NCBI GenBank assembly: GCA_013151235.1
Contig: JAADIO010000016.1
Location: 62,001 to 100,552, forward strand
DNA length: 38,552 bases
From: Deltaproteobacteria bacterium
Lineage (GTDB): Bacteria > CG2-30-53-67
Reading direction: 5' to 3'
Shown: positions 5,766 to 38,348 of the stretch, piece after piece
Layout: every line of letters begins with the position of its first letter
Numbering within the stretch: position 1 is the stretch's first letter
Made by a program: the position numbers and the translations under genes
The notes under the pieces: generated by a model
Seen by the model: only the letters and a program-made list of their open reading frames with translations
Database searches by the model: none
Told to the model about the DNA's origin: nothing

Positions 5766-5996
5766 TCTCGAGCTCCTCCTGACAGGTCGGCAGGAAGTAT
5801 TCTGCCGGCCTGTCACCCTCCTTTGCGGTGAATGATCTTTGCATTCGTCTTTCGGTTTTCCCCCATGTTCTCCTGTGTCAAGCCTGCCTGTGTGTGGTAT
5901 AGACTGAACAGGTGTTTGGACCTGCCTGGAAAACCGGGGGAAGTCCGAGCTTCTTTCCTCTTGACATGGATGTATATATGATGCATATTGATGCAT

Positions 5997-6194
5997 ATGA
6001 GAACAACATTAAACATTGATGACGACATCATTAAAAAAGCATCAAAGCTCACGGGTGTGAAGGAAAAAACATCTCTGGTGAGGTTGGGGCTTGAGGCTTT
6101 AATTGCTCGTGAAAGCGCCAAGAGGCTTGCTGAACTTGGCGGCTCGGAAAAATCCCTTAAGCCTGTTCCAAGAAGAAGAATATCCAGGAATTAA
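5997..6194 (+). CDS. vapB: Type II TA antitoxin, VapB family
   Basis: MRTTLNIDDDII...ALIARESAKRLAELGGSE. TTGACA at 5961 and repeated GATGCATAT upstream. Adjacent PIN gene. Confidence 0.85.
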   Translation: MRTTLNIDDDIIKKASKLTGVKEKTSLVRLGLEALIARESAKRLAELGGSEKSLKPVPRRRISRN

Positions 6195-6196
6195 GT

Positions 6197-6556
6197 ATGG
6201 TTCTGGTAGATACTTCAATTTGGATATCTCATTTCAGGGATAACAATCAGCGCCTCAAAAAGCTTTTGATAGATGAATCGGTAGCATGCCATCCTTTTGT
6301 CATTGGTGAGTTGGCCTGCGGTAACATGAAGAACAGAAAAGAAGTTATCTCCCTCCTCCAATCTCTTCCTCAGGCCCTTGTTGCAGAGCATGATGAAATT
6401 CTTGCATTGATTGAGCACAAGAAACTAATGGGCGCCGGAATAGGCCTTATTGACGTTCATATATTGGCATCCGCACTGTTGACAAATTTGCCTTTATGGA
6501 CAGCCGACAAAAGGTTGAGTGCATCTGCAATGAAATTGAATATTTTATATAGATAA
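6197..6556 (+). CDS. vapC: Type II TA toxin, VapC PIN-domain ribonuclease
   Basis: VLVDTSIW...GEL...IDVHILASA...LWTADKRL PIN motifs. Lower GC than the flanks. Confidence 0.9.
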   Translation: MVLVDTSIWISHFRDNNQRLKKLLIDESVACHPFVIGELACGNMKNRKEVISLLQSLPQALVAEHDEILALIEHKKLMGAGIGLIDVHILASALLTNLPLWTADKRLSASAMKLNILYR

Positions 6557-6577: not shown

Positions 6578-6605
6578 TTGACAAAATCGGTCGACTTATT
6601 ATAAT
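6578..6605 (+). promoter_or_regulatory. Sigma70 promoter with overlapping IscR type-1-like operator
   Basis: TTGACA (6578-6583), 16 nt, TATAAT (6600-6605). TTGAC-N7-GTCGA pseudo-palindrome covers the -35 box. Confidence 0.6.
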
Positions 6606-6647
6606 CAAGACGAAGAAGACATTTTTTATCCTGTTTTGGAGGGTTTG

Positions 6648-7067
6648 GTGAAACTGACGCGGGGCGGCGAATATGGAATTCGGGGAATGCTTTATCTGGC
6701 CATGCAGCCGGAGTCCGCAGTTACCCTTTTAAGTGAAATTTCTACGGTCGAAAAGATTCCCGAAAGTTATTTGGCGAAGATTTTTCAAACGCTGACGAAG
6801 GTCGGCCTGGTCCGTTCCCACCGTGGTTTCAAGGGGGGCTATTCATTAGGGCGGTCGTCCGGTGAGATTACCGTCAAGGATATCATTGAAGGGGTAGAAG
6901 GGCCGATTGTTCTGAATCATTGTCTCCAGAAGGTGAGTAACTGTTCCGAGGGATACCGATGCAAGATCCAGAATGTCTGGAAAGATGCACAGGATGCCAT
7001 GATCGGGGTCCTTGACGGAACGACCCTTGCAGATTTGGTGAAAGAGACCGCGGCGGGTCAGCCGTGA
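6648..7067 (+). CDS. Rrf2 family (IscR/NsrR-like) Fe-S transcriptional regulator
   Basis: KLTRGGEYGIRGM, YLAKIFQTL, SHRGFKGGYSL; three Cys (CLQKVSNCSEGYRC). GTG start after GGAGG. Confidence 0.9.
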   Translation: MKLTRGGEYGIRGMLYLAMQPESAVTLLSEISTVEKIPESYLAKIFQTLTKVGLVRSHRGFKGGYSLGRSSGEITVKDIIEGVEGPIVLNHCLQKVSNCSEGYRCKIQNVWKDAQDAMIGVLDGTTLADLVKETAAGQP

Positions 7068-7154
7068 AGGGAGTGTCCCGGCCCATAACCTTTCCGATGG
7101 AGAAGTGATGCCGGCAGTTTCGAGTGAATATTGTGATGAATCAAGGAGGGTGTT

Positions 7155-8330
7155 ATGAGCAGCAGAACAGTTTATCTCGATCATGCGGCGGCAACCCGTC
7201 CCTATCCCGAAGTGATCGAAGCGATGCAGCCTTACTTTCTGGAACATTTCGGGAATCCCATGAGCTTCCATAAATACGGCAGCGCTCCCCGGGCGGCACT
7301 GGAGGAGGCCCGGAGCGCCGTAGCCGGCCTGATCCATGCGAAATCCGAGGAGATCTTCTTCACCGCCTCCGGGACGGAGTCAAATAACTTTGCCGTCAAA
7401 GGGGTAGCCCTGGCCCTGCAGAAGAAGGGAAAGCATATAATTACCTCGGCCATCGAACATTACGGAATTCATCATTCCTGCAAGATGCTGGAGCGGATGG
7501 GGTTCGAGACGACCTATCTGCCGGTCGACGAATTCGGTCGGGTCGATCCGGAAGAGGTCGCAAAGGCACTCCGGGAGGATACGATCCTGGTCTCGATTAT
7601 GCTGGGGAACCACGAGGTCGGCACGCTCCAGCCGATCCGGGAGATCGCCAAGATCACCCGGGCGAGAAAGGTGACCCTCCATACCGATGCCCGGATGGCC
7701 GTTGGGCACATTCCCGTTGATGTGGAAGCATTGGGGGTGGATCTTTTGACCCTCTCCGGGCAGCACTTTTACGGCCCCAAGGGATCGGCCGCCCTTTATA
7801 TTAAGAAGGGGGTTCGCATTCAACCGTTAATCCACGGCGGGATCCAGGAACAGGGGCGCCGTGCGGGAACGGAGAACGTTCCGGCCATCGTTGGATTAGG
7901 CAAGGCGGCGGAGATCGCCTCGGAAAAGGTTGCCGGGGAACAGGCGAGGCTGGCGGCCCTTCGGGACAGGCTGGAGCAGGGTCTGACCGCAAAGATTGAT
8001 GCCGTGAAGGTGAACGGCCATCCTGAATATCGGCTTCCCCACCTGCTGAATATCTGTATCAATTACGTAGAGGGAGAGGGGATGATCATGATGATGGTTG
8101 CAAAGGGGATTATGGCGGCCAGCGGATCGGCCTGTTCCTCCAAGGCGCTCAAGGCCTCCCATGTACTCACGGCGATGGGGGTGGACCATGCCATGGCCCA
8201 GGGGTCGATTCTCTTCAGCCTGGGCCGGGAGACGGCGGAGGAGGAGATCGACTATGTCGTGGCGGAGATGCCGCCCATTGTCGAACGTCTCCGGATGATG
8301 TCGCCCATCTACCAGCAAAAAATGGGATAG
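7155..8330 (+). CDS. IscS/NifS-family cysteine desulfurase homologue lacking the PLP-binding Lys (probable pseudo-desulfurase)
   Basis: Group I fold motifs YLDHAA, FGNP, FTASGTESNN, RAGTENVP, SGSACSS. But SGQHFYGPKG replaces SGHKxYGPKG, and SILFSLG replaces SIRFSLG. Confidence 0.88.
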   Translation: MSSRTVYLDHAAATRPYPEVIEAMQPYFLEHFGNPMSFHKYGSAPRAALEEARSAVAGLIHAKSEEIFFTASGTESNNFAVKGVALALQKKGKHIITSAIEHYGIHHSCKMLERMGFETTYLPVDEFGRVDPEEVAKALREDTILVSIMLGNHEVGTLQPIREIAKITRARKVTLHTDARMAVGHIPVDVEALGVDLLTLSGQHFYGPKGSAALYIKKGVRIQPLIHGGIQEQGRRAGTENVPAIVGLGKAAEIASEKVAGEQARLAALRDRLEQGLTAKIDAVKVNGHPEYRLPHLLNICINYVEGEGMIMMMVAKGIMAASGSACSSKALKASHVLTAMGVDHAMAQGSILFSLGRETAEEEIDYVVAEMPPIVERLRMMSPIYQQKMG

Positions 8331-8381
8331 GGGTAATAATCGATTTTCATGAGGCCGTCCGGGAGAGGGGATGGGAAGAAT

Positions 8382-8777
8382 ATGACCGAAAAGATGGCGA
8401 TGGTGGTGTCGACCAACGAAATCGACAAGTTGATTACCATATTCAACCTGGCTTTGGGAGGGGCCTCCATGGGAATGGAGGTGATTCTCTTCTTCTCCTT
8501 TCACGGCCTGGAGCTTCTGAAAAAGGACAAATCCGGCGACAGCTATCAGAAACCGGATCGATCCCTGGAAAAGATGATGGCCCACCCCAAGTTCCCCTCG
8601 ATTGATCAGATGGTCATCATGTGCAAGGAAATGGGGGTCAAATTTATTGCCTGTTCCCAGTCGATGGAGTTCATGGGGCTCACCCGGGAGGATCTCCTTC
8701 CCGTGGTCGACCGTGTGGCCGGAGTGGCGACCTTTCTGGCCGATGCGGGGGATGCAAAGATTAATCTCATGCTGTGA
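8382..8777 (+). CDS. DsrE/DsrF/DrsH-like sulfur carrier
   Basis: GGASMGMEVILFFSFHGL and GVKFIACSQSMEFMG (conserved Cys), VAGVATFL. Confidence 0.85.
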   Translation: MTEKMAMVVSTNEIDKLITIFNLALGGASMGMEVILFFSFHGLELLKKDKSGDSYQKPDRSLEKMMAHPKFPSIDQMVIMCKEMGVKFIACSQSMEFMGLTREDLLPVVDRVAGVATFLADAGDAKINLML

Positions 8778-9073
8778 ATGAGGAGATGTCGATGAAGACC
8801 AATGCAATCAAGGCCGATGTCGTGCTGGACGCCTTCGGCCTGATCTGCCCGATGCCGATTGCCAAGACCTGTCAGGCGATCAAGAACATGGAGGTGGGAC
8901 AGGTGCTGGAAGTGATTGCCGATGATGAGGGGATCGTGGAGGATATGCCCAGCTGGTGCGACACAACAGGCAACGAATTCCTGGGCATTACCGAGGAGGA
9001 CGGTGAATTCCATGCCCTCGTTCGGAAGCGGGCCGATGAGAAGGAAAAGTGCGATCGTCCTCCCTGTAATTAG
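8774..9073 (+). CDS. tusA: TusA-family sulfur carrier protein
   Basis: LDAFGLICPMP (CPxP), GQVLEVIADD, DMPSWC. True start may be the ATG near 8792. Confidence 0.88.
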   Translation: MNEEMSMKTNAIKADVVLDAFGLICPMPIAKTCQAIKNMEVGQVLEVIADDEGIVEDMPSWCDTTGNEFLGITEEDGEFHALVRKRADEKEKCDRPPCN

Positions 9074-9110
9074 TTTGGAATGCCTTTAGGAGGAACGACC
9101 GGGAGAGTTG

Positions 9111-9443
9111 ATGGCCAATAAGAGAAGACATAAACGAAGAATCAATCGAAGTACGATCAAATTCGGAGAAGAGGTCTGCGACAAAACGGCCTTTACAAGT
9201 AATCTGACCCCTGAGGGTTTCTTCCTCCGGACCAATCGGGTCTATCCCCCCGGCAGGACCCTCCGCTTCGAGTTTCGCTCTCCTGCAGGGGAGATTGTGA
9301 ACGTTACGGGGAAGGTAGTCCATGCCACGCGTGTTCCCATCCATTTTGCCGGTTTGCGCAAGAACGGCATGGGGATTGAGATCGTTGGGGAGAATGAAGC
9401 CTACCGGAATCTCCTGGAGTCCCTGAAAATCGGCGGAAAGTAG
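9111..9443 (+). CDS. Stand-alone PilZ-domain protein
   Basis: KRRHKR (RxxxR), NLTPEGFF (D/NxSxxG-like), GKVVH, GMGIE. Confidence 0.82.
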   Translation: MANKRRHKRRINRSTIKFGEEVCDKTAFTSNLTPEGFFLRTNRVYPPGRTLRFEFRSPAGEIVNVTGKVVHATRVPIHFAGLRKNGMGIEIVGENEAYRNLLESLKIGGK

Positions 9444-11308: not shown

Positions 11309-11325
11309 GATGAACGGAATTCATC
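11309..11325. promoter_or_regulatory. Putative LysR binding site
   Basis: Inverted repeat GATGAA-CGGAA-TTCATC containing T-N11-A. A second ATGAATTCAT at 11337-11346. Confidence 0.55.
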
Positions 11326-11414
11326 CGGAAGGTGAGATGAATTCATTTGCTTTCCCGGTCTCTCCTATCATATATATCCCCATCTCGTTTTACAAAAGAA
11401 AAAAGGGGGGAGAG

Positions 11415-12206
11415 ATGGCAAAACCGGTCCGGATCATGATGGCGTCGACGAGCAGTGTCCAGAACTCGGGGCTGCTGGACCGCCTGATCCCCGCCTACGA
11501 GAAGGCCACCCCCTATCCTGTCCGCGTCGAGGTCCTGGCCGTCGGTACGGGGAAGGCCATCCGCCTGGCGAAACGGGGGAAGGCGGATCTTCTCCTGATC
11601 CATGACCCCTTCCGTGAAGAAAAGTTTGTCCGGGAGGGTTACGGGGTAAACCGGAGAGAGGTCATGCACAACGGGTTCGTGCTTCTCGGACCCGCGCGGG
11701 ACCCTGCCGGAGTACGGGAGGCGAAGAGCATCCGCGGGGCCTTCGAGAAGATCGCCCGGAGCCGTTCTCCCTTCGTCTCCCGCGGGGACGACTCGGGGAC
11801 GAACATGAAGGAGATGGACCTCTGGGAGGACTGCGGCATTCAGCCCGGGGGCAAGGGCTGGTACCTGGAGACGGGAGGGGGAATGGCGGAAACCCTCGCG
11901 GCCGCCGGCCGGGCCCGTGCCTACACCCTCTGTGACGAGGGAACCTATCTCAACCATAACAGCGGATCGGACCTGGAGATTCTGCATCGCGGAGATCCCT
12001 GCCTGGTCAACGTGTACAGTCTCGTGGTCGTTAACCCGGCCCGCTTCCCGGCCGTCCGCTACCGGGAGGCGATGGACTTCATCGCATTCTGTACCTCGCC
12101 GGAAGGCCGACATCTGATCGGAGCATACGTCAAGCACGGCTCCCGTCTCTTCGAACCTGAAGGGATGGACGCCCTGCCGCCTTTCCGGGAATCACCCCTT
12201 TCGTGA
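11415..12206 (+). CDS. TupA-like tungstate-binding protein without a signal peptide
   Basis: ASTSSVQNSGLL, VGTGKAI, FVSRGDDSGT. ATG at 11415 after a GGGGAGAG RBS starts directly at the mature domain. Confidence 0.85.
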   Translation: MAKPVRIMMASTSSVQNSGLLDRLIPAYEKATPYPVRVEVLAVGTGKAIRLAKRGKADLLLIHDPFREEKFVREGYGVNRREVMHNGFVLLGPARDPAGVREAKSIRGAFEKIARSRSPFVSRGDDSGTNMKEMDLWEDCGIQPGGKGWYLETGGGMAETLAAAGRARAYTLCDEGTYLNHNSGSDLEILHRGDPCLVNVYSLVVVNPARFPAVRYREAMDFIAFCTSPEGRHLIGAYVKHGSRLFEPEGMDALPPFRESPLS

Positions 12207-13073: not shown

Positions 13074-13769
13074 ATGGACGTTTTCCTGCAGGCCTTTGCG
13101 ATGATCCTCCAGCTCAAGCCGGAGCTGTTGCATATCATACTCCTTTCCCTCAGGGTATCCGGTCTTGCCCTCCTGGCGGCCACGCTTCTCGGGCTGCCCC
13201 TCGGTGCGGTTATGGGGATTGCCGTATTTCCAGGCCGGTCCCTTGCGATCACCCTGGCCAACACCTTTATGGGATTGCCTCCCGTTGTGGTCGGGCTTGT
13301 TCTCTATCTGCTCCTGTCCCGGAGCGGTTGCCTCGGTTTTCTCGGCCTGCTCTATACCCCTTCGGCCATGATCCTGGCCCAGACTATTCTCGCCCTGCCG
13401 ATCGTGGCTTCTCTCTGTCATTCGGCCATCGTCGGCGTAGATCCCCTGATCAGGCAGGCCGCTTCGACCCTCGGGGCGACCCCGTTGCAGCAGACGCTGA
13501 CCGTTGTGGGCGAGGCGCGCTACGGGATCCTCTCCGCGATCATTGCCGCCTTCGGCCGGGTGATGGCGGAGGTGGGGGCGATCCTGATCGTGGGTGGGAA
13601 CATCGCAGGTTATACCCGGGTGATGACGACGACGATTGCTTTGGAGACCGACCAGGGTGAATTTGAGCTGGCCCTGGCGCTGGGTATGGTCCTCCTTTCG
13701 ATCTCCCTTGTGATTAATCTCTTCCTGCATTACGTGCAGCAGCGCGGAAAGGTGCATTCCCCCCGATGA
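13074..13769 (+). CDS. tupB: Tungstate ABC transporter permease
   Basis: NTFMGLPPVVVGL, FGRVMAEVGA, GGNIAGYTRVMTTTIALE. Confidence 0.92.
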   Translation: MDVFLQAFAMILQLKPELLHIILLSLRVSGLALLAATLLGLPLGAVMGIAVFPGRSLAITLANTFMGLPPVVVGLVLYLLLSRSGCLGFLGLLYTPSAMILAQTILALPIVASLCHSAIVGVDPLIRQAASTLGATPLQQTLTVVGEARYGILSAIIAAFGRVMAEVGAILIVGGNIAGYTRVMTTTIALETDQGEFELALALGMVLLSISLVINLFLHYVQQRGKVHSPR

Positions 13770-14419
13770 AACTCACCTTCGGCATCGAGGATATTGCGAA
13801 ATCGTACCGGGGAATGCCGGTGCTGGCAGGCTGTTCCGCACGCTTCGACCGGCCCGGTGTTTACTGCCTGACGGGGCCGAACGGGAGCGGCAAGTCGACC
13901 CTTCTGCGCCTGTGCGCCCTGCTCGAAAGGCCGGACAGCGGCAGGGTCCGCTACCTTAATTCGGGGCATCTGTTGCCTGCGGACATATCCCTGATGCGGC
14001 GTATTACCCTGGTCCTGTCGAAGGTAGGCTTGTTCCGGGCCACGGTCGGCGGGAATGTCGCCTACGGGCTTAAGGTCCGGGGTGTTCCGTGGAGGGAGCG
14101 GAAGGAGCGGGTAAACAGGGTTCTCGCGCAGCTTGGCCTCTCCCACAAGGAGAAGGACCCGGTCTTCGCCCTTTCGAGCGGAGAGGCACAGCGGGTGGGG
14201 GTCGCCAGGGCACTGGTGCTCATGCCGGAAGTCCTGTTTCTCGATGAACCGACGGCCTTCGTAGACCGGGAGAGCAAGGGGATGATCGAGCGGACCATCA
14301 TGGACATGAAGGAGGAAGGGAAGTCGATCGTGGTCCTGGCCACCCATGACCGTTCCCAGGTGAAACGGCTGGCCGACCGGGTTTTCGTTATGGAGGATGG
14401 CAAGATTCTCGAAACTTGA
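13766..14419 (+). CDS. tupC: Tungstate ABC transporter ATP-binding protein
   Basis: Walker A GPNGSGKS, LSSGE signature, LFLDEPT. ATGA overlap with tupB. Confidence 0.9.
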   Translation: MKLTFGIEDIAKSYRGMPVLAGCSARFDRPGVYCLTGPNGSGKSTLLRLCALLERPDSGRVRYLNSGHLLPADISLMRRITLVLSKVGLFRATVGGNVAYGLKVRGVPWRERKERVNRVLAQLGLSHKEKDPVFALSSGEAQRVGVARALVLMPEVLFLDEPTAFVDRESKGMIERTIMDMKEEGKSIVVLATHDRSQVKRLADRVFVMEDGKILET

Positions 14420-21595: not shown

Positions 21596-21856
21596 ATGAG
21601 TCGCGAAGTTTTAATCTATACCACTCCGGTCTGCCCTTATTGTGTTCGGGCGAAGGCCTTGCTTACCCGAAAAGGGGTATCCTTCCGGGAGATTGACATC
21701 TCCCGTGACCGGGATCTGGAGGCGGAAATGATCCGTCTCACGAAAAAGATGACGGTTCCCCAGATCCTGGTCGATGGTAATCCGATCGGGGGGTGTGACG
21801 AGCTTCATGAGCTTGAGCACCGGGGAGTGCTGGACGAGCTTCTGCAGGGCGGGTAA
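21596..21856 (+). CDS. grxC: Glutaredoxin 3
   Basis: CPYC, TVPQI, IGGCDEL. Confidence 0.92.
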   Translation: MSREVLIYTTPVCPYCVRAKALLTRKGVSFREIDISRDRDLEAEMIRLTKKMTVPQILVDGNPIGGCDELHELEHRGVLDELLQGG

Positions 21857-22572: not shown

Positions 22573-23091
22573 CTAACCTCCCTCGATCGGTCCTCCCTCT
22601 TCCCAAAGAAACCAGTCGCCCGTCTCTTCGAGATAGTTCAGAGCATTCTGCAGAATCTCGTGATGCCGGCTCTCCTCTTTCGCAAGCATCTCAAAGAGTC
22701 GTTTTTCGTCGGCATCCCCGGAGGTTCCGGCAGATCTTTTATAAAATTCGTACCCTTTGTTCTCCATCTCAAGGGCGAATTTCAGCGCCTCCACATCCCC
22801 CGACTGTGAACCGAGGCGGGATGCCATATTCTGTCCGGCTTCTTCAAAAACGGTTTTCATCCGTTCCGCCGGGCCGGTTTCTTTGAGCTGAGTGTCGATC
22901 TTCAAGCCATGGGATAAGGCCTCGATCATGTCGTAGTGGCGTTTTTCATCTTTTACAAAAGAGAGAAACATCTTTCTACCCAGTTCGTTTTCCGTTTTTT
23001 TGCTGGCCTCCCGATAGAATGCCATGCCGTCCTTTTCCATCTTTAAGGCCACACTTAAAGCCTTGGTCATTGCCTGTTCTCTTTCGCCCAT
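22573..23091 (-). CDS. Rubrerythrin-like ferritin-family di-iron protein
   Basis: Duplicated MEKDG..FY / DEKRH and MENKG..FY / EESRH motifs. Confidence 0.88.
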   Translation of the reverse strand: MGEREQAMTKALSVALKMEKDGMAFYREASKKTENELGRKMFLSFVKDEKRHYDMIEALSHGLKIDTQLKETGPAERMKTVFEEAGQNMASRLGSQSGDVEALKFALEMENKGYEFYKRSAGTSGDADEKRLFEMLAKEESRHHEILQNALNYLEETGDWFLWEEGGPIEGG

Positions 23092-27206: not shown

Positions 27207-27575
27207 TCAGACAAAACGAATTTCTTTCATGGGATAGTGTTTCCGGTTCTTGGTCCAGAGGGCAAATCCGTAAAGCTTCGCTGTTGCGGCAATCAAGGCG
27301 TCGACAGTGTGTATGCCGTTGGACTTTGAATATTTCATCAGATAATGACCGGCCTGCTCGCCGATATCATCAGTGACCGGGACGGAAGTGAAGAGGTTGA
27401 AAAAGGCCGCTGTATTCTTTTCTTCACCCTTCCGGATTCCGGCGTAGACTTCCGCCTTGCTGAGCGGGGAATAGTGAATGAGTTTTCCTTTTTGGTAAAG
27501 TTTTTGCAGCTTGGAGACTATTTCTTTCCTGTTCCTGAGGTAATCTATGATTACATCCGTATCGAGCAAGAGCAT
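27207..27575 (-). CDS. vapC: Type II TA toxin, VapC PIN domain
   Basis: LLDTDVIIDYLR, AEVYAG, DALIAATA, WTKNRKHY. Confidence 0.9.
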   Translation of the reverse strand: MLLLDTDVIIDYLRNRKEIVSKLQKLYQKGKLIHYSPLSKAEVYAGIRKGEEKNTAAFFNLFTSVPVTDDIGEQAGHYLMKYSKSNGIHTVDALIAATAKLYGFALWTKNRKHYPMKEIRFV

Positions 27576-27577
27576 CT

Positions 27578-27814
27578 TTATCCTCTAACGCGGTCATCCT
27601 CCCGGAGTAAACGGACATACTGATCGGTCTCGAAGGTCCGGTCTTCCCAAAGGCCTGCTGCGTCTTTCAGTATTTGAAGTCCTTCCTTCGGGGTTCGAAA
27701 GGTGGTACGGATGGCGTAGCGAATCAGGGCCGAAACGGATTGACGGCGTTTTTCCCCTATTTTTTGCAGGATCTCGAAATCCTCTTCTTCCAGATAGATC
27801 TGCGTCCTTTTCAT
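27578..27814 (-). CDS. CopG/RHH antitoxin (VapB-like)
   Basis: MKRTQIYL...SVSALIRYAI...AAGLWEDR, upstream of the PIN gene. Confidence 0.85.
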   Translation of the reverse strand: MKRTQIYLEEEDFEILQKIGEKRRQSVSALIRYAIRTTFRTPKEGLQILKDAAGLWEDRTFETDQYVRLLREDDRVRG

Positions 27815-27826
27815 TATTCCCTCCGG

Positions 27827-27864
27827 TGATGTATATATAGTACATCATGGAACCGAAATGTCAA
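27827..27864 (-). promoter_or_regulatory. TA promoter with palindromic operator over the -10 box
   Basis: Minus strand TTGACA, 16 nt, TACTAT. Inverted repeat TGATGTA-N7-TACATCA at 27827-27847. Confidence 0.6.
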
Positions 27865-27931: not shown

Positions 27932-28858
27932 CTATTGTTCTTCTGAAAGGAATTTCTCCGCGTCCATCGCGGCCTTGCATCCCATCCCGGCAGCAATGAC
28001 CGCCTGCTTGTAGACAGGGTCCGCCACGTCGCCGGCGGCGAAGACACCGGGAACGCTTGTGCGGCTTCCTCCGTGCAGGACGATGTACCCCTGTTTGTCC
28101 AGCTCAACCTGCCCCTCGAAGATCTTCGTGTTCGGTACATGCCCGATGGCGATGAAGACCCCTTCGCAGGGAAGGTCCGAGACCTCGCCGGTCTTGACGT
28201 TCTTCAGGCGTACGCCGGTGACCCGTCCTTCCTCTTCGCCTAAGATCTCTTCTACGACGGAGTCCCAGGCGAAGGCGATCTTGTCGTTTCTGAAGACCCG
28301 GTCCTGCATCGCCTTGCTCGCCCGCAGTTCATCGCGCCGATGGATGATCGTGACTTTCGTGGCGAAACGGGTGAGAAAGTCGGCTTCCTCGATGGCGGTG
28401 TCACCGCCTCCGACGACGGCGATCTCCTTGTCCCGGAAGAAAAACCCGTCGCAGGTCGCGCAGGCCGAGACACCCCGCCCCATCATTTTCTGTTCCGAAG
28501 GGATCCCTAAGAAACGGGCCGAGGCGCCGCCGGCGATGATGACCGTCCTTGCGGTAATGACTTCGCTGTTGTCGAGGTGGATCGAAAAGGGATGCTTCGA
28601 GAAATCGACGGATACGACCTGTGCGCCGAGGATCTCCGTCCCGAAACGGACAGCCTGTTTCTTCATCTCCTCCATCAGGGCCGGTCCCATGACGCCGTCC
28701 GGGAAACCGGGGAAATTTTCCACCTCGGTGGTGATGGTCAACTGTCCCCCGGGTTGATGTCCCTCTATGACGAGGGGGGAGAGGCCGCTCCGGGCGTTAT
28801 AGATGGCGGCGGTGAGACCGGCCGGTCCGGACCCTATTATGACGACATTTCTGGGCAT
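27932..28858 (-). CDS. trxB: Thioredoxin-disulfide reductase
   Basis: IGSGPAG, GGQL, CATCDG, GGGDTA, FAAGDV. ATG at 28858 after AGGAGG; the 566-aa track ORF is overextended. Confidence 0.96.
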   Translation of the reverse strand: MPRNVVIIGSGPAGLTAAIYNARSGLSPLVIEGHQPGGQLTITTEVENFPGFPDGVMGPALMEEMKKQAVRFGTEILGAQVVSVDFSKHPFSIHLDNSEVITARTVIIAGGASARFLGIPSEQKMMGRGVSACATCDGFFFRDKEIAVVGGGDTAIEEADFLTRFATKVTIIHRRDELRASKAMQDRVFRNDKIAFAWDSVVEEILGEEEGRVTGVRLKNVKTGEVSDLPCEGVFIAIGHVPNTKIFEGQVELDKQGYIVLHGGSRTSVPGVFAAGDVADPVYKQAVIAAGMGCKAAMDAEKFLSEEQ

Positions 28859-28914
28859 TTCGCACCTCCTTAATTTTCCTGTGTCTCGGGATTCAAGAAC
28901 CCGGATTTTAATCG

Positions 28915-30240
28915 TCATCGCGGGTTTTGTAAAGCCCTTTTCATGACGGCCTGGTTCAGGCGATTTGCCGCCTCTTTGACCTTCCGGTAACCTTCGGGGT
29001 TCCGGCAGCAACAGAGGTGCTTGTTGTGAAGCAGCGGCTCGGTCCGGATCGCCGGATATTTGCGGGCGGTTGTCTCGAAATCGGGGGTCCCCGGAACCGG
29101 GGAATAGGTGGCGAGATAAGAACGTATCCCGGCCTCGTGAACCATGTGCAGGGTCTCGATTACCGCCTCGTCCGGTTGACTCGGCACGCCGTATAGGACG
29201 TAGGCGCCCAATTCCTCCTGGGTGAAACCGGCGGAATGGAGGAGGCGCACGGCCCGCCGGAATGCGTCGTTTGAGACCTTTGCCGATGAATGCTTTTTCT
29301 GGAAGGAGGGACTGCTGCTCTCCAGACCGAGACGGATCGTTTTGAATCCGCTGCGGAAGAGAAGACCGGCTGTCTTTTTCGTGACCGCCCCGGCGTGGAT
29401 TGCGTTTGGAAGATGAAATCGCAGATTGAGCCCTGTCCGTATGATCCCCTCCAGGATCGGGTGGAGATGGGTCCCGACCCGGACCAGGAGGGCGTCGTCG
29501 AAGAAGGCGAAGTCCCGCACCTTGTGTTGTTTCACGTAGTCTGTAATGGCCGCGACGACCTTGTCGGGGTCTTCCTGTACAAACCGGGGGTAGAGCCGGG
29601 AAACAGCGCAGTAACTGCAGGCAAAAGGGCATCCCCGCGAGGTAATCAGGGGGATGCTGCGCACTTGTTCGTAGAAGGAGAAATCGGGAAAGGGGAGAAG
29701 AGCCGGCAGTGGACCGCTCCGGAGGATTCCCTGCAGCCTTGCCAGGATGTGTTCAGAATCTTTTTCGGGGAAGAAGAGATCGGCGCCCGAGTATTGCCGG
29801 GCATGGTCCGGGCAGAGGGTGACGTAATTGCCTCCCAGCCCGATCGGGACGCCGGGGTGGGTATCGCGGACGATTTCAATCACCCGGTGCGCTCCGGGAT
29901 ACCAGTAGGTCATGAGACAGGTGACGAGAACGAGGTCGGGGCGGCCGAAGCCGGTCAGCTCCGCCCGGAATCTTTCATCGTCCATGCCGAACCGCCTGAA
30001 GGAGCGGGGGATTCCGTGCAGCGGCGGCGGGGAGTCGACCGCCCGGCCGGGGATCTTCCCGGTGGCGAACCGTTTGTCCTGTGCCCCGAGGGCGGCCCGG
30101 TCCACGCAGTCGATCAGTCCGACCTCATGCCCCGCCCGCTTCAGCGCCGTCCCGATCATGAGGAGTCCCAGCGGCTTGATCCAGAAATCGTATGCGGCGA
30201 AGTCCGTGATCCATGGATGAATGAGGAGGATCTTCTTCAT
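28915..30240 (-). CDS. Cobalamin-binding-domain radical SAM protein
   Basis: MKKILLIHPWITDFAAYDFW.KPLGL, TSRGCPFACSYC (CxxxCxxC), FFDDAL, GLES. Confidence 0.87.
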   Translation of the reverse strand: MKKILLIHPWITDFAAYDFWIKPLGLLMIGTALKRAGHEVGLIDCVDRAALGAQDKRFATGKIPGRAVDSPPPLHGIPRSFRRFGMDDERFRAELTGFGRPDLVLVTCLMTYWYPGAHRVIEIVRDTHPGVPIGLGGNYVTLCPDHARQYSGADLFFPEKDSEHILARLQGILRSGPLPALLPFPDFSFYEQVRSIPLITSRGCPFACSYCAVSRLYPRFVQEDPDKVVAAITDYVKQHKVRDFAFFDDALLVRVGTHLHPILEGIIRTGLNLRFHLPNAIHAGAVTKKTAGLLFRSGFKTIRLGLESSSPSFQKKHSSAKVSNDAFRRAVRLLHSAGFTQEELGAYVLYGVPSQPDEAVIETLHMVHEAGIRSYLATYSPVPGTPDFETTARKYPAIRTEPLLHNKHLCCCRNPEGYRKVKEAANRLNQAVMKRALQNPR

Positions 30241-32547: not shown

Positions 32548-32970
32548 ATGAAGAGATCACGAATTCGGATACCCCCTGAGTCAGTGTTGCATCGAATCGG
32601 GGAGAAGTACGATCTCAAACTGATTCTCCTGTTCGGTTCTCAGGTTACCGGCAGGGTGCATGAGATGAGCGATATTGATATTGCCGTTCGAACCCGGTCA
32701 GGCAAGGGGGTCAAATTCGCCGATCTCCTCGATCTTACGGCCGATCTTACAGGACTCTTTGAGAAGGATGTGGACCTTTCCGTCCTGGATCATGCCGATC
32801 CGCTCTTCCTCTATAATGTTGTGGAAGGAGCGCGACTTTTGTGCGGAGAAGAGAAGGACTTTGACGCATTACGTTTGAAGGCCTTCAAAAAATACCAGGA
32901 TTTTCGTCCCATTCTTGAACTGGAACGGCAATTTCTCTTGAAGGAATATAACGCGGGAGTAATGCCATGA
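32548..32970 (+). CDS. Minimal nucleotidyltransferase antitoxin (MntA, type VII TA)
   Basis: LFGSQVTG...SDIDIAV (GSX10DXD), VDL. Confidence 0.88.
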   Translation: MKRSRIRIPPESVLHRIGEKYDLKLILLFGSQVTGRVHEMSDIDIAVRTRSGKGVKFADLLDLTADLTGLFEKDVDLSVLDHADPLFLYNVVEGARLLCGEEKDFDALRLKAFKKYQDFRPILELERQFLLKEYNAGVMP

Positions 32971-33416
32971 TTGATCCGGCAATGGTGCACCGGAAGCTTT
33001 CTCTGATTACCACGGACCTGAAGAGATTAAAGGATCTGGTCGCGAGAACCCGGGAGGCGCTTCTTTCGGACGAAATTGGTCTGGCCGCTGCAGAACGTTA
33101 TCTCGAAAGGGTCATCGGCCGGATGATCGATATCAACTATCACCTGATTACCTCGGAAGGGGAACCGCCGCCGAAGGACTATTATCTCTCATTTGTCCAG
33201 TTATCAATAAAACCCGCCATCCTTGACAAGCAATTTGCCGAAGAAATAGCAAACGCCGCGGGTCTTCGTAATCGCATCGTCCACGAGTATGACGATATCG
33301 ATCCCGGCCTCACCATTGAAGGGATGCGTGCGGCCGTGAGGGATATCCCGCTTTATGCCGGAGCGGTTCTGAAATATTTGGAAAAGCGGCGAAAGGATCG
33401 GGATCCGGCTGAATAA
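32967..33416 (+). CDS. HEPN (DUF86) RNase toxin (HepT, type VII TA)
   Basis: GLRNRIVHEYDDID (RX4HXY). ATGA overlap with the MNT gene. Confidence 0.88.
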   Translation: MIDPAMVHRKLSLITTDLKRLKDLVARTREALLSDEIGLAAAERYLERVIGRMIDINYHLITSEGEPPPKDYYLSFVQLSIKPAILDKQFAEEIANAAGLRNRIVHEYDDIDPGLTIEGMRAAVRDIPLYAGAVLKYLEKRRKDRDPAE

Positions 33417-36854: not shown

Positions 36855-37403
36855 ATGCAGCCTATCAAGCAACTGACGGAAATTTTGGAGAACCTGGCGG
36901 ACAGAGAGCATTACCTCTTTTCTCGGAGAGATCTGAGCGCCGTTATTCCCGGCCATCATTCGGTCGCAATGAAGGCAGTGATCGGCCGGGCAGTCAAGAA
37001 CGGTCTGCTCAGGCGCGTCTGCCGCAGTCTGTTTCTCTATCCGAAGGTTGATTATCCTTCCGGTCTTGTCTTGTATCATGCCGCCGCCCGCCTGAGAGCC
37101 GATGAATTTAATTACATCAGCCTGGAATCCGCTTTGAGTGATGCCGCCGTGATTTCACAAATCCCCATGAACTGGATCACGCTGATGTCTTCCGGACGTA
37201 GCTCTATTATCGACTGCGGATCTTTCGGCCATATTGAATTCGTCCATACAAAAAAATCTCCGGATCGTGTGGCCGACCAGGTTGTCTATGATCCCCGCTG
37301 CAGACTGTGGCGTGCATCCGTTGCCTTGGCGCTGCGGGACATGGCGCAGACCAGGCGAAGTACCGACCTGGTAGATTGGGAGGCGGCCCGTGAATTTGTT
37401 TGA
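36855..37403 (+). CDS. Type IV TA antitoxin, AbiEi family
   Basis: GLLRRVCRSLF winged HTH, YISLESALS...ISQIP; overlaps the AbiEii start. Confidence 0.8.
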   Translation: MQPIKQLTEILENLADREHYLFSRRDLSAVIPGHHSVAMKAVIGRAVKNGLLRRVCRSLFLYPKVDYPSGLVLYHAAARLRADEFNYISLESALSDAAVISQIPMNWITLMSSGRSSIIDCGSFGHIEFVHTKKSPDRVADQVVYDPRCRLWRASVALALRDMAQTRRSTDLVDWEAAREFV

Positions 37404-37635
37404 CCTTCTGGTTACCCAGGCCATGAAGCGCTGGGGCAAACTGGCTTCCTTGCGCAGTGTGGTGGAAAAAGAACTGCTGCACCATGACATTCTCCGTGAA
37501 ATGAGTGCTGCAGGTATGCTCAACGATTTGACCTTTATCGGCGGCACATGTCTGCGGGCCTGTTACGGCTCCCATCGTTTGAGTGAGGATCTGGATTTTA
37601 CCGGGGGGGTCGGCTTTCGTTGTGAGACCCTGCGC
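37390..37635 (+). pseudogene. Truncated AbiEii/AbiGii nucleotidyltransferase toxin
   Basis: VEKELLH, FIGGTCLRACYGSHRLSEDLDF. Similarity stops after ~80 aa and the frame runs on through a repeat to 37791. Confidence 0.75.
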
Positions 37636-37660
37636 TGTGACCAGATCCGCTCTCCGGGTT

Positions 37661-37696
37661 CCCCCCCGTTCGACAAAGGGGGGCCAGGGGGGATTC
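37661..37696. repeat. CCCCCC-N-AAAGGGGGG..AGGGGGGATT repeat
   Basis: Same family as 32351-32384 and 15985-16006. Confidence 0.65.
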
Positions 37697-37816
37697 GATC
37701 TTTCTATTTGTGGCGGTTGTTTCTTGTGGAATTGATATCCTGCACATGGTGTGTTATGGTCATAAAGCGAGAAATTATAATATTTCTATGAATGAATTGG
37801 ATTGCGAGGTGGAAAG

Positions 37817-37999
37817 ATGGGGACGATTACAATTCGGAAAAATGAAGATATCCAGGAAATAAGGAACAGGATACTGCATGGTGTCAGGAATGCAAAAGCG
37901 CTTTCCGTGAAGAAATACAGCGGAAGATTGAAGTTAAAGGAAGAACCGTTAGTCTATCAAAAGCGTATTCGGAAAGAGTGGGATGAACATACTCGTTGA
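37817..37999 (+). CDS. Probable antitoxin for the downstream PIN toxin
   Basis: GAGGTGG RBS; KKYSGRLKLKEEPLVYQKRIRKEW tail; overlaps the PIN gene. Confidence 0.65.
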   Translation: MGTITIRKNEDIQEIRNRILHGVRNAKALSVKKYSGRLKLKEEPLVYQKRIRKEWDEHTR

Positions 38000-38348
38000 C
38001 ACCAACATTGCACTCTATTTATTTGGCGGAGATCAACAAATTTCCGGAGTGCTTGATGGCCAAGTGGTCCATGCATCCTTTGTTACGGAACTTGAGTTGC
38101 TTGGATATCCAGGCATTACCATCGAGGAAGAAAAATTGATTCACCATTTTCTGGATGATTGCGTCGTGATTGATCTGAATGGGCAAATTAAGAGCAAAAC
38201 AATAAAACTTCGGCGGCAGTATGGATTAAAACTGCCGGACAGCATTATCGCGGCAACAGCATGCTATTTGGGCATACCTCTTTTCAGCGCCGACATGGAT
38301 TTCCGGGCAGTGAAAGAAATCGACTTGATGGCCTATGAACGAAGTTGA
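37983..38348 (+). CDS. vapC: Type II TA toxin, VapC PIN domain
   Basis: ILVDTNIALY, TELELL, LKLPDSIIAATA, FSAD. Confidence 0.9.
   Translation: MNILVDTNIALYLFGGDQQISGVLDGQVVHASFVTELELLGYPGITIEEEKLIHHFLDDCVVIDLNGQIKSKTIKLRRQYGLKLPDSIIAATACYLGIPLFSADMDFRAVKEIDLMAYERS

Follow-up and report, generated by a model that had tools for sequence, protein, structure and literature searches.

How are iron-sulfur (Fe-S) clusters and thio-cofactors supplied with sulfur where there is no working cysteine desulfurase? The question is open in strict anaerobes, and for one system, SMS, recent work has shown that sulfide is used directly. It is raised in a particular form by a locus of a Deltaproteobacteria bacterium, which lies in the 38,552-nucleotide stretch of DNA (38.5 kb; positions 62,001 to 100,552 of contig JAADIO010000016.1, assembly GCA_013151235.1) that we analysed and refer to as the window. 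There, five plus-strand open reading frames (ORFs) stand in a row and encode, according to Pfam and NCBIfam scans, an Rrf2-family regulator, an IscS/NifS-fold protein (here IscS*), a DsrE-family protein, a TusA protein and a PilZ-domain protein. An earlier note on this DNA, made from the letters alone, had claimed that IscS* has lost its cofactor and substrate residues while keeping the persulfide cysteine, and had inferred a cysteine-independent trafficking system in which the protein might capture sulfide or persulfide, or act as a scaffold for DsrE and TusA. Can a desulfurase without its active site serve such a system?

As described below, IscS-like proteins without these residues form a large clade under selection, found in Dehalococcoidia, anammox bacteria, Nitrospirota and syntrophs. 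TusA is encoded beside nearly all of them and DsrE beside many, and this association, which spans the family, seems not to have been described. We offer the hypothesis that inorganic sulfur reaches an IscS-IscU-type machine through a persulfide relay. The window's variant, with no IscU, an Rrf2 gene and a His-rich pocket, allows the role of the dead enzyme to be separated from that of IscU.

Active site and fold of IscS*

IscS* (391 amino acids) is encoded on the plus strand by an uninterrupted reading frame at positions 7155–8330, whose ATG at 7155 is preceded by AGGAGG and whose product matches Pfam Aminotran_5 (PF00266) at 6.2e-73. We aligned the protein to Escherichia coli K-12 IscS as given in the annotated MG1655 record; an alignment with PDB chain 9wep shows the same mapping. 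The alignment to the E. coli protein bore out the four active-site changes claimed in the earlier note for this intact homologue: Lys206 of the E. coli enzyme is His204 in the window (codon CAC, 7764–7766), Arg354 is Leu353 (CTC, 8211–8213), Asn155 is His153 and Gln183 is Met181. A fifth change, His205 to Gln203, had been missing from the list. Thr76, His104, Asp180, Ser203, Thr243 and Cys328 are unchanged; the last of these, the persulfide or cluster-ligand position that the note had also described as kept, is Cys327 in the window (codon 8133–8135; motif SGSACSS) and is cysteine in 120 of 120 relatives.

The structural literature on IscS assigns Arg354 to contact with the substrate carboxylate, and Asn155, Gln183 and His205 to contact with pyridoxal phosphate (PLP); among the retained residues, His104 and Asp180 contact the PLP ring, and Thr76 and Thr243 its phosphate. 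Lys206 forms the Schiff base with PLP, as a passage of PMC8300815 describes. In a genome sample of 45 canonical IscS/NifS genes, Asn155, His205, Lys206 and Arg354 are present in all 45 and Gln183 in 43. Because these positions are invariant or nearly so, the replacement of all five at once is no chance variation. By analogy with the IscS of Archaeoglobus fulgidus, and given the known role of Lys206, IscS* would be devoid of desulfurase activity. The earlier note had raised one objection to its own reading, namely that the lysine of the nearby GPK (YGPKG) motif might serve as a replacement Schiff-base residue. We rule this out, since canonical enzymes share that lysine (for example, PDB chain 9wep), and the objection is not upheld.

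IscS* scores below the NCBIfam cut-offs for both NifS (TIGR03402, 515.1 against 530.75) and IscS (TIGR02006, 410 against 643.2). An AlphaFold2 model of the protein, built with 65 relatives, has a pLDDT of 88.6 and a pTM of 0.89, and Foldseek superposes it on NFS1, E. coli IscS and A. fulgidus IscS with template-modelling (TM) scores of 0.91–0.95; as modelled, IscS* keeps the aminotransferase class-V (desulfurase) fold. The loop that carries the cysteine (residues 326–333) is modelled with low confidence, suggesting that it is flexible.

The best PDB matches of IscS* are seven point variants of one 406-amino-acid cysteine desulfurase (9wep, 9wer, 9wew, 9wfe, 9wf8, 9wfb and 9wfy). Two of the seven have Val at the Arg354 position, and the series looks engineered.

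Conservation and gene linkage of the Arg354-less clade

A protein search returned 24 clusters at 74–92% identity to IscS* (one of them a 280-amino-acid fragment), followed by a gap down to 61% or less; we call these 24 close relatives the H clade. At the Lys206 position they have His in 23 cases and Gln in one (P0019), and at the Asn155 position His in all 24. Arg354 is replaced by Leu in 23 members and Val in one, Gln183 by Met (17), Leu (5), Ser (1) or Pro (1), and His205 by Gln (20), Leu (3) or Cys (1), while the cysteine at position 328 is present in every member. The residues that set the H clade apart, found in at least 22 of its 24 members and in at most 5 of 96 other Arg354-less relatives, include new histidines at 106, 153, 185 and 204, Cys109 and Arg180 (window numbering). 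They sit beside the invariant His102, His107 and Asp178 and beside Cys327 of the putatively mobile loop.

One H-clade locus, L002, among at least 600 stretches listed, was examined, and the Nitrospirota label of the H clade rests on it. This Nitrospirota metagenome-assembled genome encodes an IscS* that is 91% identical to that of the window, in the same order Rrf2-IscS*-DsrE-TusA. The cassette is flanked there by an HD-domain gene and a major facilitator superfamily transporter in place of the window's VapBC and PilZ genes; the conserved unit is the set of four genes. The ratio of non-synonymous to synonymous substitution rates (dN/dS, Nei-Gojobori, window against L002, at dS of 0.85–1.0) is 0.073 for Rrf2, 0.064 for IscS*, 0.041 for DsrE and 0.061 for TusA, compared with 0.150 for the neighbouring M16 peptidase. 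All four cassette genes thus lie at 0.04–0.07, well within the earlier expectation of a value below 1, and the Lys-/Arg-less pattern is fixed under purifying selection. The chance that the gene is a decaying pseudogene or carries a sequencing error is negligible: an intact ORF with a strong ribosome-binding site, the same residues in 24 relatives on separate contigs, and a dN/dS of 0.064 at a dS of 0.85 rule this out.

The losses extend far beyond the H clade. Arg354 is absent (replaced by Leu or Val) from all 120 nearest 90%-identity cluster representatives, and Lys206 is absent from 105 of them; the close canonical homologues that the earlier note had named as a sign of decay or error thus do not exist among these relatives, none of which has Arg354. 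The 96 relatives that follow the H clade, at 58–61% identity, all lack Arg354, and 81 also lack Lys206 (Gln in 75, Ala in 3, Arg in 2 and Glu in 1). More broadly, the 150 nearest 50%-identity cluster representatives from a library of 1.8 billion proteins comprise 131 canonical proteins, 14 without both Lys206 and Arg354, 3 without Arg354 alone and 2 without Lys206 alone. Some members of the clade are labelled 'cysteine desulfurase' or 'cysteine desulfurase NifS' in spite of the lost Arg354 and, mostly, the lost lysine.

Three trees group the Arg354-less proteins into one clade: a FastTree of 118 rows (72 in the clade, support 100) and two IQ-TREE analyses under LG+C20 (PMSF), of 64 rows (37 in the clade, SH-aLRT 99) and of 78 rows (44 in the clade, SH-aLRT 100). 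The prediction that the Lys-to-His/Gln and Arg-to-Leu changes define a clade is therefore confirmed. The H clade is nested inside it (support 100) and adjoins two proteins in which the Lys position is occupied by Arg, and lineages that lack Arg354 but keep the lysine branch near the base. If the tree is rooted, as we assumed, on the proteobacterial ISC-type IscS, this suggests that Arg354 was lost before Lys206. The window gene, judged from its position in these trees, is a sub-branch of a large and widespread clade and not a singular invention. Loci of the clade come from Dehalococcoidia and other Chloroflexota, Brocadiaceae and other Planctomycetota, Nitrospirota, Smithella and other Deltaproteobacteria, Aminicenantes and Acidobacteriota.

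No member of the clade departs from His104, Asp180 or Cys328. Three positions beyond the loop cysteine there is a Lys or Arg in 11 of 12 H-clade rows (Lys 10, Arg 1; Lys330 in the window, 8142–8144) and in 57 of 60 others, whereas canonical enzymes have Gly there in 28 of 45. At the Lys206 position, on the other hand, the clade shows His, Gln, Ala, Arg, Glu, Pro, Met, Gly, Thr, Ser, Asp, Leu and Asn. The 15 of the 96 non-H relatives that keep Lys206 (P0026–P0030, P0032, P0033, P0035–P0038, P0040, P0046, P0047 and P0058) are, as far as their source is named, Nitrospirota proteins called NifS. These basal proteins, which may be transitional forms, also keep His205; in them Arg354 is replaced by Leu or Val, and Gln183 often by Met. 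Another gene of this type, in locus L037 (5959–7173), has a canonical IscS upstream and an IscU downstream.

For gene linkage, we took 80 loci (of at least 600 stretches listed) together with the window, searched their six-frame ORFs with the Rrf2, DsrE and TusA proteins of the window and with E. coli IscU and IscA, and classed each IscS-like gene by its residues. Of the 87 IscS-like genes found, 72 had at least 1500 nt of downstream flank; a gene counted as nearby if it was on the same strand within 2.5 kb. TusA is nearby for 28 of 32 Lys-/Arg-less genes, for 0 of 1 that retains Lys and lacks Arg, and for 1 of 39 canonical genes, and that one adjoins a Lys-less paralogue. The same 32 genes have IscU in 24 cases and DsrE in 13. 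The commonest orders are IscS*-IscU-TusA (12 loci) and IscS*-IscU-DsrE-TusA (10 loci). Since the next gene in the clade is normally IscU (24 of the 32 loci with enough flank), the family context is Fe-S assembly; the IscU proteins beside Lys-less genes keep Cys37, Asp39, Cys63, Lys103, His105 and Cys106 together in 27 of 28 cases. No SufBC was found among the 89 neighbour ORFs scanned, out of 152 candidates from 20 related loci.

In the window, the absence of iscU asserted in the earlier note held: E. coli IscU had no match at E<=1e-3 among the six-frame ORFs of the whole stretch, and no NifU/IscU domain was found in the 47 window ORFs scanned with Pfam. Judged from the window and 13 kb of L002, the missing iscU is a peculiarity of the window's Nitrospirota branch. 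Two related Nitrospirota loci, L009 and L014, likewise lack IscU, and they do not have the H-clade histidines. What is special to the window's branch is that iscU has gone from the cassette, an Rrf2 gene has been added and the pocket has been remodelled in its own way. The conserved rrf2-dsrE-tusA synteny that had been anticipated thus stands for TusA and in part for DsrE, and fails for rrf2, which is linked in a few branches only.

Three loci pair a non-canonical copy with a canonical IscS: L037, the Chloroflexota locus L008, where canonical IscS-IscU is followed by the Lys-/Arg-less copy, and L069. Because the canonical gene sits close by, the non-canonical IscS is in those genomes an addition and not a replacement. 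Locus L069 (4439–7913), from an archaeal metagenome-assembled genome, begins with a very divergent Lys-/Arg-less IscS paralogue, which is followed by TusA, a canonical IscS and IscU; its two paralogues fall together outside the Arg354-less clade in two trees (118 and 64 rows) and inside it in the 78-row tree, on a long and unstable branch.

Regulator, carriers and surroundings of the operon

The earlier description of the genes around IscS*, with a three-Cys Rrf2 in front and DsrE and TusA carriers with intact cysteines behind, proved accurate. The Rrf2-family regulator (6636–7067, plus strand; Pfam Rrf2 1.5e-36) has three cluster-ligand cysteines that align with Cys92, Cys98 and Cys104 of IscR, and Gln in place of IscR His107. 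Its true start is probably the GTG at 6648, giving 139 amino acids, as the L002 orthologue begins at the aligned ATG. It falls below the cut-offs of the NCBIfam equivalogs for IscR (TIGR02010, 96 against 207.55), NsrR, RirA and CymR, and from its sequence is best described as a three-Cys Rrf2 protein with no assigned subtype.

The DsrE-family sulfur carrier, which is DsrE2B-like, occupies 8382–8777 on the plus strand (131 amino acids; Pfam DrsE_2 5.1e-29), with a probable start at ATG 8382 within a longest ORF from 8349. It scores 101.7 bits against a Pfam cut-off of 25 (PF13686/PF02635 family), and stays below the NCBIfam cut-off for DsrE2 (NF047629, 54.8 against 210). Its closest solved structure is 2qs7 (1.8e-20), described in a passage of PMC11094781 as a homotrimer of the DsrE2B type. 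The cysteine of its motif IACSQSM aligns with that of 2qs7 and is kept in 12 of 12 homologues, the window's included.

The TusA sulfur carrier (8792–9073, plus strand; 93 amino acids; Pfam TusA 5.5e-25) probably starts at ATG 8792, which has GAGGAG in front of it, within a longest ORF from GTG 8774. It scores 87.4 bits against the gathering cut-off of 28.6 for PF01206, and 55.4 against 78 for the NCBIfam TusA equivalog, that is, below it. The CPxP cysteine is kept in 30 of 30 sequences, counting the window's, and Asp45 and Asp51, which flank the acceptor cysteine in E. coli TusA according to PMC2854127 as far as seen, are invariant in 28 aligned sequences. The H-clade TusA proteins also end in a Cys-x4-Cys tail (window 9047–9073; L002 7870–7893) that is absent from the 28 other aligned TusA proteins. 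In L009 (7338–7652), TusA ends instead in a threefold 8-residue repeat rich in Gly, Ser and Val, and adjoins a Nitrospirota Lys-less IscS with Arg at Lys206 and Met at Arg354.

Upstream of the Rrf2 gene, the region under study begins at 6578 with the first base of a sigma-70-type promoter match, TTGACA-16-TATAAT (6578–6605, plus strand), which agrees with the consensus at 12 of 12 positions. Promoter-like sites as a class are not more frequent in the region than in shuffled sequences (5 against 3.9 +/- 1.8). The TTGACA, the TATAAT and the whole stretch from the -10 element to the ribosome-binding site are, however, nearly identical in L002, while the DNA further upstream diverges, and a palindrome lies at 6585–6600, inside the promoter region. 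Rrf2 may have its operator between the -10 element and the ribosome-binding site.

The PilZ-domain ORF lies 3′ of TusA at 9108–9443 (plus strand; Pfam scan). On the other side of the cassette are a VapB/VapC pair (5988–6556), which L002 lacks, and the M16 peptidase gene. The window holds many toxin-antitoxin modules: besides the VapB-VapC pair adjoining the operon there are a second PIN gene preceded by a small ORF, an MNT/HepT pair, an AbiEii fragment and a third PIN gene (27207–27848, 32548–33416, 37390–37791 and 37983–38348). About 2 kb downstream of the operon, a PBP_like_2 substrate-binding protein (11310–12206) and an ABC ATPase (13766–14419) are encoded beside a divergent LysR gene; an oxyanion (tungstate, molybdate or phosphate, for example) is a possible substrate. 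Glutaredoxin and rubrerythrin genes (21596–21856 and 22573–23091) are also present, as is, on the minus strand (27932–29632), a 566-amino-acid pyridine-nucleotide-disulfide oxidoreductase, the first ~260 residues of which have no Pfam match.

In some related loci, the neighbourhood of the cassette is one of oxidative stress and iron storage. A fusion of flavin reductase and rubredoxin (Flavin_Reduct-Rubredoxin) stands right 3′ of TusA in L004, L007 and L010, and rubrerythrin stands just upstream in L004, L010 and L015 (coordinates: L004 4948–5992 and 8522–9211; L007 7510–8196; L010 5439–5975 and 8072–8761; L015 5439–5975). Farther out, these four Dehalococcoidia and Deltaproteobacteria loci encode a ferritin-like protein, an ODP-family beta-lactamase (PF19583), superoxide dismutase, AhpC, ferritin and ZIP. 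Electron donation is one possible role for the fusion; alternatively, these surroundings may indicate a part in oxidative stress.

Role of the operon and relation to known systems

The most economical reading of these results is that IscS* has ceased to make persulfide from cysteine, while its mobile cysteine continues to carry sulfur or a cluster. In the form that we favour, and to which we give a probability of about one half, IscS* is a non-catalytic IscS that swaps persulfide sulfur with TusA and DsrE through its Cys loop, for a cysteine-free supply of Fe-S clusters or thio-cofactors under Rrf2 control. IscS* would thus be a member of the class-I cysteine desulfurase (IscS/NifS) family that has kept the dimeric fold and the mobile Cys327 loop and, being unable to form the PLP aldimine or to bind cysteine, would draw no sulfur from cysteine. 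The DsrE2B-like protein would instead acquire sulfane sulfur from polysulfide, persulfide or another source that is inorganic or of low molecular weight, and hand it to the CPxP cysteine of TusA, which would exchange it with Cys327. IscS* may then pass the sulfur to an acceptor or help to ligate a nascent cluster on it; in most relatives this acceptor would be the adjoining IscU, and in the window's Nitrospirota branch it would be encoded elsewhere or be something different. The three-Cys Rrf2 would act at the conserved promoter region as a repressor or activator of the operon, depending on its own cluster state. The analysis shows the lost residues, their conservation under purifying selection, the fold and the linkage of the genes; the loss of desulfurase activity, which way the sulfur flows, where it comes from and what accepts it are the parts of this scheme that we infer.

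Several observations weigh against it. The residues with which E. coli IscS contacts TusA are changed in the H clade (Trp45 to Ser or Thr, Glu49 to Lys or Ala), and Arg27 of TusA is Cys in the window; because these residues are not kept, a contact between IscS* and TusA, if there is any, must differ in detail from the E. coli complex. The linkage to TusA is the trait of one clade, which leaves 2 phylogenetically independent contrasts and p = 1 (the Fisher value of 8e-14 ignores relatedness and is not a probability), and TusA is missing from the vicinity of 4 of the 32 Lys-/Arg-less genes. The window contains no IscU, ferredoxin, rhodanese, sulfide:quinone reductase or YeeE-type transporter, and the same set is absent from the 89 scanned neighbour ORFs. 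The invariant His104 and Asp180 are not explained by a pure relay, suggesting that the old PLP pocket still binds something. Finally, no member of the clade is biochemically characterised, except, possibly, A. fulgidus IscS. Two further comparisons bear on neither side: the segments corresponding to the IscU and TusA contacts of E. coli IscS have conservation of 0.61–0.72 between the H clade and the rest, against 0.66 overall, which is uninformative, and a predicted IscS*-TusA complex scored 0.29 and 0.24 against a mark of 0.32, in runs without controls, and is not used as evidence.

IscS* might, alternatively, be a purely structural partner that docks on an IscU-type scaffold encoded elsewhere and lends Cys327 as the fourth cluster ligand, with free sulfide as the source, while TusA and DsrE serve the thiolation of tRNA or of the molybdenum cofactor. 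The A. fulgidus protein is a precedent with the same substitution pattern (passages of PMC7585200 and the PDB titles 4eb5, 4hvk and 4r5f), and IscU with intact ligands is the next gene in 24 of 32 relatives. The A. fulgidus-like representative, P0166, lies outside the Arg354-less clade in the free quick tree; the approximately unbiased (AU) test does not reject a place inside it (p-AU 0.996), the constrained tree being better by 98 log-likelihood units, partly from a longer search. Nevertheless, neither the 38.5-kb window nor the 13 kb of L002 contains an IscU, and TusA is kept more steadily than IscU (28 against 24 of 32), which would be odd if it were unrelated. Conservation of the IscU-contact segments is average (0.62 against 0.66) and neutral either way. 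We consider this explanation unlikely but not far-fetched. That adjacent iscU was lost in the very branch in which the new His and Cys residues described above became fixed beside the invariant His102, His107 and Asp178 allows a different proposal, namely that the PLP pocket of the H clade was rebuilt as a His/Cys metal or Fe-S site. Its candidate ligands would be His102, His106, His107, Cys109, His153, His185, His204 and Asp178, capped by the mobile Cys327, and IscS* would be an iron donor or a scaffold in place of IscU, with sulfur coming from DsrE and TusA. This seems distinctly doubtful, given that P0019 has Gln at position 204, that the histidines could merely fill an empty pocket, and that L009 and L014 do without IscU and without these residues.

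The operon could also be a module for the sensing or detoxification of reactive sulfur species, in which the carriers and IscS* buffer persulfide and signal the sulfur status to Rrf2. The three-Cys Rrf2 directly upstream, with its conserved promoter and leader, would fit such a role, as would the stress genes (rubrerythrin, flavin-reductase-rubredoxin, ferritin-like protein, PF19583, superoxide dismutase and AhpC) at four related Dehalococcoidia and Deltaproteobacteria loci. We hold it to be very unlikely nonetheless, because linkage to Rrf2 occurs in few branches while linkage to IscU dominates, and because no persulfide dioxygenase, sulfide:quinone reductase or rhodanese was found nearby (in the window or in the 89 ORFs of 20 loci). 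The least probable of the functional explanations is that IscS* is still an enzyme, working with non-covalent PLP or another cofactor and with His204 as a base, on cysteine or another sulfur compound. His104, Asp180, Thr76 and Thr243 are indeed kept clade-wide, and the 15 basal members among the 96 non-H relatives, which retain Lys206 and His205 without Arg354, suggest that the pocket was not abandoned in one step. Yet Lys206, Arg354, Asn155, Gln183 and His205 have all changed in IscS*, the 13 residue types at the Lys position across the clade are unlike the behaviour of a catalytic residue, and the A. fulgidus IscS is inactive, according to the parts of PMC7585200 seen.

The preferred explanation, a non-catalytic IscS in a persulfide relay with TusA and DsrE, can be set beside several known systems. 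Among the closest is A. fulgidus IscS, which, as described in parts of PMC7585200, has Asp in place of the essential Lys, shows no desulfurase activity and uses its cysteine as a ligand to a [2Fe-2S] cluster on IscU; the same passages mention that M. acetivorans IscS1 also lacks the Lys. The A. fulgidus IscS2 structures (PDB 4eb5, 4eb7 and 4hvk, and the D199K mutant 4r5f) match IscS* with Foldseek TM scores of 0.91–0.93 at 44–46% identity. Chain 4eb5, read from a PDB alignment with P0166 as the query, has Ser-Ser-Asn-Asp where canonical enzymes have Ser-Gly-His-Lys, together with Ala at Gln183, Leu at Arg354 and a Lys three residues after the loop cysteine, which is the pattern of the Arg354-less clade. 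Both proteins thus lack Lys206, Arg354, Gln183 and His205 and keep the loop cysteine, so that the comparison drawn in the earlier note holds and is closer than it had stated (Leu at Arg354, Asn at His205, Ala at Gln183). They differ in that the Lys position is Asp in A. fulgidus and His in IscS*, and in that Asn155 is kept in the former and changed in the latter. Moreover, A. fulgidus IscS2 has IscU as its partner, whereas IscS* has no adjacent IscU and is encoded between Rrf2 upstream and DsrE and TusA downstream. The relatives of IscS* do resemble the IscS-IscU pair of the ISC and minimal MIS systems, since the IscU that they carry has all its ligands.

With the E. coli IscS-TusA complex (PDB 3lvj), IscS* shares the fold (TM 0.93) and the Cys-loop motif, and the window TusA shares with E. 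coli TusA the CPxP cysteine, Asp45 and Asp51. In that complex, Cys19 of TusA lies ~4 A from Cys328 of IscS, by the account in the part of PMC2854127 seen. E. coli IscS is, however, a PLP enzyme that makes persulfide from cysteine and donates it to TusA, and IscS* would be without that chemistry; with it gone, sulfur, if it is moved at all, must enter IscS* from the carriers. Such carriers are known from sulfur oxidisers, where DsrE3-type proteins become persulfidated by polysulfide and swap sulfur with TusA (from passages of PMC11094781). Like the DsrE-TusA relays of those organisms (rDsr and sHdr; DsrE3A/B/C and DsrE2), the window has a DsrE with a single conserved cysteine beside TusA. Unlike them, it has no dsr or shdr genes, and its relay is coupled to an IscS-like protein and not to an oxidising complex; its DsrE is nearest to the soluble DsrE2B structure 2qs7 while remaining below the NCBIfam DsrE2 cut-off. 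SMS (minimal SUF, SmsCB) is likewise a desulfurase-independent route to Fe-S clusters in anaerobes, and uses sulfide directly; its proteins are unrelated to IscS*, and the passages seen in PMC12192291 and PMC13066941 mention no persulfide carriers for it. Nothing in the literature that we searched describes a Lys-less IscS linked to TusA and DsrE, although an earlier mention is possible. What is new here is a variant of the inactive IscS-type proteins already known: each chemical step of the proposed relay would have a precedent, in DsrE3-TusA, in TusA-IscS and in the IscS-IscU of A. fulgidus, and the novelty would lie in their combination and in the implied flow of sulfur from TusA to IscS*.

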